A stretch of 64,000 bases of DNA, taken from contig CAVUWD010000020.1 in the NCBI GenBank assembly GCA_963745025.1, forward strand, positions 32,001 to 96,000, given 5' to 3'. The position numbers and the translations under genes are program-made. This DNA comes from an uncultured delta proteobacterium (GTDB taxonomy: Bacteria; Desulfobacterota; Binatia; JACPRU01). Positions 9,866 through 49,409 of this stretch are shown in pieces. The notes beneath the pieces are model-generated. The model did no database searches. It saw nothing but the letters and a program-made list of their open reading frames with translations, and was not told the DNA's origin. How positions within the stretch are numbered: the stretch's first letter is position 1; every line of letters starts with the position of its first letter.

Positions 9866-10957
9866 GTGCGAGCCAGACATTGGATCGCTCTTCAGTCGAT
9901 CGCTGGGGTGGGAGCCGCGACATGCCGTCGATTGTTCGAGGCGTTCGGCAACGGCGAGGCCGTCTTCCGTTCCCTGCCAGAGCGCCTCGCCCGCGCCGGT
10001 GCCGGCGCGGATGTGATCCGCGCGATCGGCAGCTTCCGGCGCTGGGCGGAAGTTGACGAAGAGCTGCGGCGCGCAAGCGACCTCGGGGTCGCTCTCGTCT
10101 CGATCGAGGAGGAGCGCTATCCGGTCGGCCTGCGATTCATCCACGATCCGCCTCCCGTTCTCTACGTGCGGGGCCGGATCGACCGTGCCGACCTCGAGGC
10201 GATCGCCATCGTCGGTTCGCGCTCCGCGAGTCCCTATGGAATCGCATCGGCGGATCGGCTGGCACGCGAGCTCGCCGCCTGCGGCGTCACGGTCGTCAGC
10301 GGTCTCGCGATCGGCATCGATGCCGCGGCTCACCGTGGCGCGCTCGCGGCCGGTGGCAGGACGATCGCCGTGCTCGGCTGCGGCATCGATCAGGTCTACC
10401 CGTCACGGCATGGCAAGCTCGCAGTCGCGGTGGCCGAGGCGGGAGCGGTGGTCTCCGAGCTGCCGATCGGTACGCCTCCCGAGGCGCATCAGTTTCCTCG
10501 CCGCAATCGCATCGTCGCTGGCCTGTCGCTCGGCGTGGTCGTCGTCGAGGCGGGCGCGCGGAGCGGATCGCTGATCACCGCACGGCTGGCATTGGAGCAG
10601 GGGAGGGACGTGCTCGCCGTCCCGGGTGAAATCGGCCTCGAGCGCACCCGTGGCTCGCACCGGCTGATCCGACAAGGGGCGACGCTCGTCGAGAGCGCGG
10701 CGGACGTGCTCGAGAGCGCGCTCCCGTGGCGGGTGCCGGCCCCGGCACCGCGCTCCGCCAACCACGCGAGCGAGGATCTCTCCGTCGACGCCGCGCGCCT
10801 TCTCGGTGCCTTCGAGAGCGTCGCCGAGCCGGTCGATCGGCTGATCGAGCGAAGCGGGCTCGGCGCCGCCCGCGCACTCGAGATTCTCCTCGAGCTAGAG
10901 CTTGCAGGCAAAGTCCGTCCGCATCCCGGGATGGTGTTCTCCAAACGGGTTGGCTAG
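9866..10957 (+). CDS. dprA: DNA-processing protein DprA
   Basis: 'AIVGSR', 'VVSGLAIGIDAAAH', 'FPRRNRIVAGLS' and 'SGSLITA'; GTG start after AAGGAG; precedes topA. Confidence 0.95.
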   Translation: MRARHWIALQSIAGVGAATCRRLFEAFGNGEAVFRSLPERLARAGAGADVIRAIGSFRRWAEVDEELRRASDLGVALVSIEEERYPVGLRFIHDPPPVLYVRGRIDRADLEAIAIVGSRSASPYGIASADRLARELAACGVTVVSGLAIGIDAAAHRGALAAGGRTIAVLGCGIDQVYPSRHGKLAVAVAEAGAVVSELPIGTPPEAHQFPRRNRIVAGLSLGVVVVEAGARSGSLITARLALEQGRDVLAVPGEIGLERTRGSHRLIRQGATLVESAADVLESALPWRVPAPAPRSANHASEDLSVDAARLLGAFESVAEPVDRLIERSGLGAARALEILLELELAGKVRPHPGMVFSKRVG

Positions 10958-10958
10958 G

Positions 10959-11015
10959 AGGCTGCGTCACGGATCGCTCCCGGTGGTCGCGAACCGTCTC
11001 CGGCCGACGCAGCCT
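10959..11015. other. Inverted repeat/hairpin between dprA and topA
   Basis: AGGCTGCGTC (10959-10968) and GACGCAGCCT (11006-11015). Confidence 0.4.
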
Positions 11016-11060
11016 GCCGAGCTAGCGGCCCCCGCCAACGTCCGCTACGATCGCACGCGC

Positions 11061-13361
<2,301 letters not shown>

Positions 13362-13396
13362 GGGCGCAGGTCGGAAGACTTCCGCCCGTCCTGCCT

Positions 13397-13468
13397 CGAG
13401 CATTTCACGCCGAAGCCGTCGCGGGTCCCCGCTACAACGAGCGCTACATGAAGTGGGTCGACCGGTGA
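13397..13468 (+). pseudogene. 3' remnant of a probable aldo/keto reductase gene
   Basis: Translates as RAFHAEAVAGPRYNERYMKWVDR*, resembling AKR C-termini (..AVAGxRY....M..VxR); no start codon or upstream body. Confidence 0.4.
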
Positions 13469-13490
13469 GCCTCTCCTGTATCCTCTCGCT

Positions 13491-13721
13491 CTTCGCCTCG
13501 AGTGCTGGAGATTCCGAAACGCTGGATTTTCCGGTCGGCCCGTACACGGGGCGACCGGAAAATCCAGCCACCGCGCGAAGCGCGGAAGCGATAGACCAAG
13601 TCGCGGGTTGATTACCTTCCGCGCTTCGCGCGGTGGCGGTCGGTTGTGATCGACCCGAGTACGGGCCGATCACAACCGACCGCGCTCTCCGTCCTTCGAA
13701 GCACTAGGCCTAGAGGCGAAG
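13491..13721. repeat. Symmetric multi-hairpin element, copy 1
   Basis: Perfect stems 13521-37/13552-68 (17 bp), 13567-88/13616-37 (22 bp) and 13636-52/13667-83 (17 bp); closing CTTCGCCTC/GAGGCGAAG and AGTGCT/AGCACT; homologous to 49146-49400. Confidence 0.85.
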
Positions 13722-13782
13722 GCTGAGCCCCTACGCCGTCTCCTCTCTTTAACTCTCGCGCCGCTGACGTTAGTCTCAGACC

Positions 13783-15144
13783 GTGGGCGAGATCGTGAAC
13801 GTGGTTGGAGGGGGCCTCGCCGGCTCGGAGGCCGCCTGGCAGCTCGCCCGCCGCGGCGTGCGCGTGCGCCTGTACGAGATGCGCCCGCTGCGCGGCACAG
13901 AAGCACACCGCGGCGACCGGCTTGGCGAGCTCGTCTGCTCGAACTCGTTTCGTAGCGCCTCGCTCGACGCGGCCGTCGGGCTCCTCAAGGAGGAGATGTG
14001 CCGCCTCGGCTCGCTAGTCATGGAGGTCGCCCACCTGGCGCGCGTACCCGCTGGCGCCGCGCTCGCCGTCGATCGAGAGCTGTTCGCGGCCGAGATCACG
14101 CGGCGAATCGAAGCCGATCCCGCGATCGAGATCGTCCGCGAAGAGGTCGCCGGCCTCGACCGCTTCGACCCCGAGCTCGTGATCGTCGCCAGCGGACCGC
14201 TCACCTCGCCCGCGCTCTACGCGGAGCTCCGCCGCCTCTTCGGTCGTGATCATCTCTACTTCTACGATGCGATCTCGCCAATCGTCTCCGCCGAGTCGAT
14301 CGACCGCTCGGTCGCATTCTCCGCCTCCCGTTACCAGAAGGGCGGCGACGACTATCTGAACTGCCCGCTCAGCCGCGAGGAGTACCAGCGCTTCGTCGAC
14401 GAGGTGCTCCGCGCGGAGAAGGTGCCGACGCGCGAGTTCGAACGGTGCATCTATTTCGAGGGCTGCATGCCGATCGAGGAATCGGCTCGGCGCGGGCGCG
14501 ACACACTCGCCTTCGGGCCGATGCGTCCGGTTGGCCTCGTCGACCCGCGTACCGGAAGGCGGCCGCACGCCGTCGTGCAGCTCCGTCAGGACAACCGGGA
14601 AGCGACGCTCTATTCGCTGGTCGGCTTCCAGACCAAGATGACCTATCCCGAGCAGCGGCGCGTGCTGCGCATGATCCCAGGCCTCGAGCGCGCGGAGTTC
14701 ATCCGGCTCGGCAGCCTCCACCGCAACACGTTCATTCACTCGCCGTCGCTCCTCGAACCGACGATGGAGTTTCGCCGCCGCCGCTCGCTCTTCTTCGCCG
14801 GGCAGCTGATCGGCGTCGAGGGCTACGTCGAATCGGCGGCGAGCGGACTCCTCGCCGGTGTGAACGCCGCCCGCCGGGTCGAGCGCCGTCCGTGTGTCGT
14901 GCCGCCGCTGACCACGGCGCTCGGCTCGCTCGTGGCTTACGTCACGGCCAGCGAGCGCGACGAATTTCAGCCGATGAACGCCAACTACGGCCTCTTCCCG
15001 CCGATCGGCGGCAGTCTTCGCGGACGGGACAAGCGAGCGGAGCTCGGCCGCCGCGCGAGCGTGGATCTCGAGCGGTGGATCGACGGCGAGGAGATCCGCC
15101 CGCCGCTCGCCGCCGGCGCGGAGCGCCGGCGGGCGATGCCGTGA
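13783..15144 (+). CDS. trmFO: Methylenetetrahydrofolate-tRNA-(uracil-5)-methyltransferase TrmFO (Gid)
   Basis: '[13 protein letters not shown]', 'ELVCSNSF', 'YFYDAISPI', 'GVEGYVES' and 'FQPMNANYG'. Confidence 0.97.
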
Positions 15145-49129: not shown

Positions 49130-49145
49130 CAAGCGAGACGGTAGT

Positions 49146-49400
49146 GTCTCAGTCTTCGTAGGATGCTCGCCGATACGAAACGCGCGCTTGGTTTTTGTCG
49201 ATCCGTACTCGGATCGACAAAAACCAAGCGCAATAGCGCGAAGCGCTGAACTCAATAGACCAATTCGGTGGCGTATTTGTCTTCCGCGCTTACGCGCGGT
49301 TGCGCTCGGTTTCGATCGACCCGAGCGCGGGCCGATCGAAACCGAGCGCGCTATCCGGTGATCGAAGCGTTCGTACTGAAATTGACGCATCGACCGAGAC
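49146..49400. repeat. Symmetric multi-hairpin element, copy 2
   Basis: Perfect stems 49184-200/49215-31 and 49302-18/49333-49 (17 bp each, 14-nt inserts); GCGCGAAGCGC, ATAGACCAA and CTTCCGCGCTT shared with copy 1. Confidence 0.85.
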
Positions 49401-49409
49401 GACGGATTC

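Follow-up and report, generated by a model that had tools for sequence, protein, structure and literature searches.

A lineage-restricted family of miniature transposons, probably of IS66 type, with mirror-image hairpin modules at both ends in an uncultured delta proteobacterium

Insertion sequences (ISs) of the IS66 family are defined by ends that begin with GTAA and by an 8-bp direct repeat. The active family member ISDge4, an example of the single-transposase (ISBst12-like) ISs, is reported to have GTAA/GTGA ends with CTCAG, the terminal inverted repeats (TIRs) GTGACTACTCAGCA/GTAACTGCTCAGCA, and an 8-bp duplication (PMC12898284). The bcr1 element of the Bacillus cereus group is non-autonomous, flanked by short direct repeats of 5 bp, and unevenly distributed between relatives; it is reported to be transcribed and to preserve a cruciform-like structure through compensatory changes (PMC3184786). 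REP and REPIN sequences are dispersed, intergenic, GC-rich hairpins that occur in inverted pairs and conserve their hairpin shape. Here we describe a family of short multi-hairpin repeats, two copies of which lie in a 64,000-nucleotide stretch of DNA from an uncultured delta proteobacterium (assembly GCA_963745025.1, contig CAVUWD010000020.1, positions 32,001 to 96,000; hereafter the window), one of them between the genes topA and trmFO. [quoted passage not shown] The nearest known counterparts are IS66-family ISs where its ends and duplication are concerned and, for the fold, structured MITEs like bcr1. A designed-looking multi-hairpin sequence thus belongs to an ordinary class of selfish DNA, and annotating it as a novel gene for an RNA would be inappropriate.

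The source genome (G000) comprises 5.65 Mb in 20 contigs and is 92.65% complete with 7.6% contamination. The topA–trmFO element had been taken in an earlier note on this DNA for copy 1 of 2, but an nhmmer search with a hidden Markov model (HMM) of approximately 253 bp, built on 27 near-full copies, finds the element at 96 non-overlapping places in the genome, two of which are in the window. Thirty-two of the 96 places are near full length, and a blastn search with the element as the query identifies 87 genomic places. The family is small, non-coding, and multi-copy, as is characteristic of MITEs, and the 257-bp window copy is too short to hold any transposase. According to gene calls from a crude codon-bias picker of open reading frames (ORFs), which produced 4,134 ORFs and a coding fraction of 77%, 77 of the 96 places are intergenic, with 47 located between tandem, 18 between convergent, and 12 between divergent genes. 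There is no clear bias in this gene context, since the split approximates the shares of intergenic length.

The TIRs and target-site duplications (TSDs) of the family are both visible in the alignment of 27 copies. The TIR consensus of the MITE is GTAATGCCTCAGTCT..., with a start of the form GTAA/GTGA...GCCTCAGTCT, and the family consensus reads GTAATGCCTCAGTCTTCGCC... at the left end and ...GGCGAAGACTGAGGCGTTAC at the right end. The left and right terminal segments of individual copies form duplexes with a median energy of -32.4 kcal/mol, compared with -24.8 kcal/mol when the right arm is shuffled. No runs of column-wise covarying long-range pairs were found between the left and right terminal segments, where the alignment is poor. 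In an unanchored test, an exact 8-mer is shared across the two ends of 12 of the 32 near-full copies, compared with 1.1% of shuffled left-right pairings. With the TIR motif as the anchor for the ends, the duplications of 12 of 28 copies are identical at 8/8 positions and those of three more at 7/8, against null frequencies of 0.1% and 1%; some of the low-scoring copies have mis-anchored right ends, and copy 1 of the window was left out, its TIR being too worn. Target-site duplication is therefore evident at the level of the family. The combination of TIRs and TSDs in the element is the hallmark of a DDE transposon.

The mobility of the family is evident from the comparison with relatives, which include a sister species (G001) and members of three other genera of the family (G002, G005, and G006). 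Of 15 MITE loci examined in the sister species, two are filled at the orthologous place in the source genome, and for at least seven both flanks are adjacent in the source genome and the MITE is absent. At one of the sister-species loci, L073, deleting the MITE together with one copy of aggtcatg recreates the flank sequence of the source genome. Insertions of the MITE are thus polymorphic between relatives. An unrelated insertion of approximately 150 bp is located only a few bases from the L073 site in the same spacer of the source genome (G000:C20:198622-198782, outside the window). A related MITE in G005 has a TIR, the 8-bp TSD tgcgatct, and the left module, and differs in its right half. 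Together, the TIRs, the 8-bp TSDs, the approximately 96 dispersed places, and the presence or absence of insertions in the sister species bear out the earlier suggestion of a non-autonomous mobile element.

The arrangement of topA and trmFO is kept across the family. The spacer between them measures 14–43 bp in G002, G005, and G006 and lacks the element, whereas that of the sister species is rearranged, free of the MITE as well, and filled with 1,100 bp of other sequence. The proposed comparison with empty topA–trmFO sites thus yields empty spacers in three other genera, and the part of it that concerned the sister genome fails because of the rearrangement. Contigs from independent sediment metagenomes, with an identity of approximately 98%, contain a filled topA–trmFO site, which they enter from both flanks. 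These contigs break inside the element (at 13589 and 13666), and their stops are no evidence of absence. The metagenome depth over the hairpins is 5–18 times that of the flanks, which would be expected if the repeat is collapsed. No joint that skips the MITE, as expected of an empty allele, was found among the contigs of four DNA runs. In metagenome bins from this lineage, the family thus marks the points at which assemblies break.

A potential partner of the MITE is encoded in the same genome. The DDE_Tnp_IS66 domain (PF03050) has matches at four places, three of which are copies of a 1,885-bp IS that are 99.9–100% identical. One copy is flanked by the 8-bp TSD aacgatcg. The large ORF of the IS matches the model NF033517, "IS66 family transposase", with 218.5 bits (cut-off 180), as well as PF03050 and zf-IS66, so the IS encodes a DDE transposase of the IS66 family, 468–490 aa long, that includes a zf-IS66 domain. 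The IS end GTAAGGCCTCAGTCTCCGTAGGGG agrees with the major consensus of the MITE ends at 17 of 24 positions and with the L008-type subfamily at 20 of 24, and 14–15 of the first 16 terminal bases are the same. The 10-mer GCCTCAGTCT occurs 41 times in the genome: 31 times at MITE places, 6 times at the six IS ends, and four times elsewhere. Both the MITE and the IS have ends of the GTAA/GTGA type that contain CTCAG, together with an 8-bp direct repeat, as is typical of IS66-type ends, and an autonomous element with ends matching those of the MITE was found in the source genome only. Unlike the IS, the MITE carries no transposase.

The IS itself has several further features. Unlike the MITE, it contains a small ORF upstream of the transposase, which encodes 105 residues (L003:684-1001, + strand) and has a borderline match to DUF6788 (27.0 bits, cut-off 27.2). 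This ORF is distinct from the TnpB_IS66 accessory gene. Outside the window, two identical copies of the 1,885-bp IS are arranged head to tail (L001/L002, G000:C6:484414-488185), with exactly 8 bp (cttctgga) between them that are repeated after the second copy. The tandem could be a dimer of the IS, or could have arisen by insertion immediately next to a resident copy. The sister species contains a different, unrelated IS66-family IS of 2,435 bp (G001:C27:14634-18437 and two further copies, L090–L092), which likewise has GTAA-type ends with CTCAG. It is bounded by GTAACCGTTCAC and flanked by the 8-bp repeat gaatgaaa, and the transposase that it encodes shares only 32% identity with that of the source genome. 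No IS with modules in its own ends, which could represent the parent of the MITE, was found among the IS66 loci of the family genomes. A literature search, limited in extent and conducted without ISfinder, returned no description of an IS66-derived MITE.

Several observations weigh against the assignment of the element as an IS66-type MITE. The identity between the IS and the MITE is confined to the approximately 20 terminal bases, beyond which they have nothing in common; the MITE HMM has no match on the 1,885-bp IS, and the hairpin module is missing from the IS. Although both genomes hold MITEs, the assemblies of G001 (82% complete) and G005 (84% complete) yielded no IS whose ends match. In the gene calls described above, 19 of the 96 places overlap an ORF, which may reflect over-extended ORFs. 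The window copy in the topA–trmFO spacer has worn ends, with only 12 of 24 positions of its left end identical to the IS end, and lacks a clean 8-bp TSD by eye (cctctcct on the left versus gccgtctc on the right). Furthermore, the rearranged spacer of the sister species means that a clean empty site for this copy is not obtainable there.

The earlier note had linked the folded structure to HUH-family enzymes. In such a scenario, the element would be REP/REPIN-like and moved by an HUH enzyme (RAYT or IS200/IS605-type) that recognises folded single-stranded DNA (ssDNA). The element does contain stable hairpins, including d(GCGAAGC)-like mini-hairpins, and the genome encodes two Y1_Tnp proteins (PF01797; IS200/RAYT-like; G000:C13:188500-188823 and C11:419866-420189). 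However, neither Y1_Tnp locus contains the hairpin motif or a match to the MITE HMM, and the association with a RAYT gene that characterises REP/REPIN–RAYT systems is missing. The inner hairpin motif, unlike those of REP and REPIN sequences, is restricted to the MITE: of its 80 genomic occurrences, 78 are inside MITE places. HUH single-strand transposons are not known to make terminal inverted repeats or target duplications, and the absence of both, a property of REP/REPIN–RAYT elements, does not apply to the MITE with its TIRs, 8-bp duplications, and IS66-like ends. The link to HUH, RAYT, or Rep enzymes was thus not borne out, and we consider movement by such an enzyme highly improbable.

It is similarly very improbable that the family consists of immobile genes for small structured RNAs and only looks repetitive. 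Covariation and a very low folding energy, described below, are properties expected of such genes. Nevertheless, the TSDs, the TIRs, the presence or absence of the element at orthologous sites, and its strand symmetry argue against them. There is no promoter-like site, no T-run, and no terminator-like site in the region 13300–13900, and hence no intrinsic terminator. A search of the window against Rfam, as had been suggested, found no described family at the gathering score; with E-values up to 1, there are 11 sub-threshold matches to generic hairpins, the best of which is MIR1151 with 37.3 bits against a gathering score of 90. The fraction of the sampled words present in any RNA run was at most 0.10.

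Each end of the MITE contains one 72-nt module, composed of a 22-bp hairpin and a GC mini-hairpin, and the two modules are in mirror orientation. The two halves of the element thus represent one unit when read 5' to 3' inward from each terminus. The distance from the tip to the hairpin is 44–45 nt in 40 of 56 left ends, with a range of 42–59 nt. Of the 112 modules, 104 align as one family, and eight were left out because of long indels. The long hairpins have a G.T wobble in the matching place on both sides, in 28 of 56 left and 31 of 56 right copies, and the apical loop TACT is present in 28 of 56 left and 47 of 56 right hairpins. d(GCGAAGC)/GNA and GNRA are mini-hairpin loop motifs, and the mini-hairpins of the MITE resemble them in having a C-G closing pair and a G-N-A or G-N-N-A loop, a form that 52 of 56 and 51 of 56 copies show when the inward strand is read. 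This resemblance is to a structural motif rather than a family, and indicates nothing about whether the module folds as DNA or RNA. The middle of the loop varies (GGA, GAA, GTA, GCA, GCAA, GCGA, GGAA, GTAA, and others), and the two loops within one copy are often unlike, such as GCAA with GGA; the mini-hairpins are therefore not simply each other's complement.

Individual copies deviate from the common geometry of the module and core. Locus L043 has a 17-nt insertion within the loop of mini-hairpin 1, and the apical loops of hairpin 1 in L048 and L053 are 7 nt longer. The core of L027 (G000:C16:85403-85715) contains an extra palindrome of approximately 31 nt (GGTGCTGTCC-TAA-GGACAGCACC). In three of the 112 long hairpins, the apical part is inverted relative to the family (hairpin 1 of L017, and hairpin 2 of L006 and L059), which could be the result of a template-switch flip or of an exchange between the two hairpins.

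The base pairing of the hairpins was evaluated in an alignment of the 56 copies that cover at least 170 model positions; the other 40 of the 96 were left out. RNAalifold predicts 51 pairs from this alignment, 31 of which are changed on both sides. In a hand-completed structure of 53 pairs and 2,954 cells, 96.5% of the hairpin cells are paired, compared with 86.1 +/- 0.3% after shuffling (none of 500 shuffles as high). Changes on both sides affect 32 of the 53 pairs (17.2 +/- 1.9 in shuffles) and 240 cells (47 in shuffles), and only 28–42% of cells are paired if the partners are slid by 1–3 columns. The copies are related by descent, so the shuffles overstate the significance of the covariation; the effect is nevertheless large and spread across at least seven visibly different stem sequences. 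The covariation of hairpin 1 is located in alignment columns 91-111/123-144. The lower 11–12 bp of the stems are variable, in contrast to the conserved sequence of the top, CGGTCG-R-YCCG-TACT-CGGR-Y-CGACCG. Within one copy, the stem on the left has diverged completely from that on the right, and each is still paired. In the central core stem, only 74.4% of cells are paired and there is no covariation (290 of 500 shuffles as high), and the core stem was therefore dropped as a conserved helix.

The substitution patterns within two young subfamilies of eight and seven copies provide additional evidence for the maintenance of the stems. Relative to the subfamily consensus, there are 0.012 differences per stem column per copy, compared with 0.043 in non-stem columns. 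The differences in the stems comprise three compensated doubles, six restorations, and seven new mismatches. The strong covariation and the lower substitution density in the young-subfamily stems are consistent with the proposal, made when the element was first noticed, that it is selected for shape.

The MITE inserts with an 8-bp target duplication, and an IS66-family DDE transposase, for which the 1,885-bp IS is the best candidate, would move it in trans. We tentatively prefer the reading that the module acts in cis, as a component of the transposon end that matters for the element's own propagation, perhaps by folding in single-stranded or cruciform DNA or by binding a protein. The reasons are that the module forms part of both ends with mirror symmetry, has been conserved in the subfamilies and in two genera, and does not depend on genomic context. 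The candidate IS speaks against a cis role in that it does not contain the module, which therefore cannot be something that the transposase needs on its own element.

Alternatively, the modules may act at the level of RNA, as stem-loops that end, insulate, or stabilise transcripts arriving from either side. Such functions have been proposed for REP, ERIC, Correia, and bcr1 repeats, and the MITE would then be kept because of its effect on RNA. The strong covariation, the wobble of the inward strand, which is compatible with G.U in both halves, and the G-N-R-A-type loops would all fit folding as RNA, and the mirror symmetry would enable the element to work in either orientation. The intergenic position of 77 of the 96 places points in the same direction, and bcr1 provides a precedent of a MITE in which compensatory changes are reported to maintain an RNA structure of cruciform-like shape (PMC3184786). 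In sequence and host, however, bcr1 is unrelated to the MITE described here, its direct repeats are 5 rather than 8 bp long, and it forms one fold, whereas the MITE has two mirror-image end modules. Gene 3' ends are not enriched next to the MITE, as the tandem, convergent, and divergent placements roughly follow intergenic length, and the region 13300–13900 contains no T-run, terminator-like, or promoter-like site. We consider an RNA-level role fairly unlikely, and less likely than a cis role.

The pairing might also be unselected, and regenerated during replication by intra-strand template switching or by the correction of mismatches in extruded hairpins, with one arm serving as the template for the other, as in the fold-back copying suggested in the earlier note. 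Template switching is reported to be able to give rise to hairpin stems, and to preserve them, with changes that look compensatory (PMC8794818). The three hairpins with an inverted apical loop are expected products of such events, and the complete divergence of the left and right stems of one copy, with pairing retained in each, would be explained as well. However, the lower number of changes in the young-subfamily stems than in non-stem columns argues against regeneration, as does the predominance of single changes (seven mismatches and six restorations) over the three doubles. Moreover, the conserved G.T wobble persists uncorrected in the 28 left and 31 right hairpins, and the central inverted repeat has decayed to 74% pairing. 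Unselected regeneration of the stems is thus unlikely, and the cis-acting role remains our preferred reading.

The G.T wobble and the G-N-A/G-N-N-A loops, both present when the modules are read 5' to 3' inward, raise the question of whether the module is selected on this one strand, which we consider rather unlikely. There are 63 G.T and 27 A.C mismatched cells on the inward strand, but these correspond to only 25 and 17 distinct events, and the bias is regarded as a trend rather than as evidence. If such selection did operate, this IS66-type branch would pass through an ssDNA step in which the ends fold, or the module would be a two-way RNA insulator whichever way the element is inserted. No description of an ssDNA end-folding step for the IS66 family surfaced in the limited literature search. 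The mechanism of IS66 transposition is poorly characterised, and the pair of the MITE and a transposase with testable ends could be a useful handle on it. The family also provides a data set on why some MITEs keep internal hairpins, with more than 100 mirror-image modules and the decaying central stem as a contrast. The hairpins may be kept because transposition requires them in cis, because of an RNA-level effect, or through template-switch repair.

A covariance model (CM) of the module with 72 positions and 26 pairs (CM R1) was used to determine the distribution of the family. In the window, the CM identifies four inward-facing modules with 82–97 bits, compared with approximately 42 bits on the opposite strand. 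There are at least 150 matches in the source genome, 36 in G001, and 5 in G005; a search of this kind had been called for, and it found the further copies in the genome and in two relatives. The CM has no matches in five other genomes of the family, which are 65–82% complete. In an even sample of the class, three of 151 genomes contain matches, namely the source genome, G001, and G005. An exact-pattern scan of 185,579 species genomes has true matches only in one uncultured delta proteobacterium metagenome-assembled genome. Six of the 14 stretches found in the scan, from Nocardioidaceae, Gemmatimonadaceae, Rhodanobacteraceae, Streptomyces, Caulobacterales, and Synergistales, were rejected as chance occurrences, with no hairpin or HMM match. 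The elements thus form a MITE family, probably of IS66 type, that is restricted to one uncultured lineage.

Of the two MITE copies in the window, the one between topA and trmFO is old and has worn ends. Reading the window sequence confirms the symmetric multi-hairpin layout that had been recognised at 13491–13721. However, these boundaries are too narrow: the similarity among the aligned copies starts and stops sharply outside them, and the family alignment with flanks places the limits of the copy at approximately 13478–13734, corresponding to a length of 257 bp and a partly degenerate sequence. The nhmmer match covers C20:45481-45729, which is 13481–13729 of the window, and the homology to the sister genome upstream of trmFO picks up again at 13737. 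The ssDNA of the copy (13478–13734) is predicted to fold with an energy of -105.3 kcal/mol, compared with -50.8 +/- 3.9 kcal/mol for shuffled sequences (n = 200, z = -14.2), none of which fold as well.

The degenerate left TIR of this copy (GTATCCTCTCGCTCTTCGCCTC; 13478–13499, + strand) was identified by alignment to the family consensus, and the right TIR (GAGGCGAAGGCTGAGCCCCTAC; 13713–13734, - strand), also degenerate, by the family alignments. An outer inverted repeat is formed by positions 13491-13514 and 13698-13721, with a length of 24 nt and a complementarity of 75%. The left end module (13518–13589, + strand; CM R1 88.8 bits, E 2e-14) consists of long hairpin 1 (13521–13568, + strand) and mini-hairpin 1, CCGCGC-GAA-GCGCGG (13571–13585, + strand). 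The arms of hairpin 1 (13521-13543/13546-13568) are 23 nt long and 96% complementary, with one G.G mismatch and the loop TACA. The core with ATAGACCAAGTCG (13586–13618) is a weak inverted repeat without covariation. The right end module (13615–13686, - strand; CM R1 97.3 bits, E 6.5e-16) is the mirror of the left one, and contains mini-hairpin 2, CCGCGC-TTC-GCGCGG, which has a GAA loop on the - strand (13619–13633, - strand), and long hairpin 2 (13636–13683, - strand). Both mini-hairpins were read in the sequence and agree with the family census of loops. The arms of hairpin 2 (13636-13657/13662-13683) are 22 nt long and 95% complementary; the A.C mismatch on the + strand corresponds to G.T on the - strand. 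What had been described as a 14-nt insert in each long hairpin is itself paired, with 4 bp of stem and a loop of 4 nt above a single mismatch, so each long hairpin has 22–23 bp.

Six bases of the window copy (13705–13710) are missing from the sediment metagenome contigs of two runs, and the difference is a small indel polymorphism within the element. The right spacer of the copy has six extra bases (CTAGGC) relative to the family alignment. The upstream neighbour topA (10902–13361, + strand; NCBIfam TIGR01051, 853.6 bits, cut-off 456.4) ends 116 bp before the copy, and the downstream neighbour is trmFO (13783–15144, + strand; NCBIfam NF003739, 646.2 bits, cut-off 262).

The second copy of the MITE in the window (49141–49393) belongs to a divergent subfamily, and its left end, GTAGTGTCTCAGTCTTCGTAGGAT, is identical to the IS end at 18 of 24 positions. 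It is flanked by the target-site copies gcgagacg on the left (49133–49140) and ccgagacg on the right (49394–49401), which were read from the sequence and are identical at seven of eight positions. The left end module (49181–49252, + strand) and the right end module (49280–49352, - strand) match CM R1 with 81.5 and 87.8 bits, respectively. The geometry of copy 2 is the same as that of copy 1, and its fold has a z-score of -10.2 relative to shuffled sequences.

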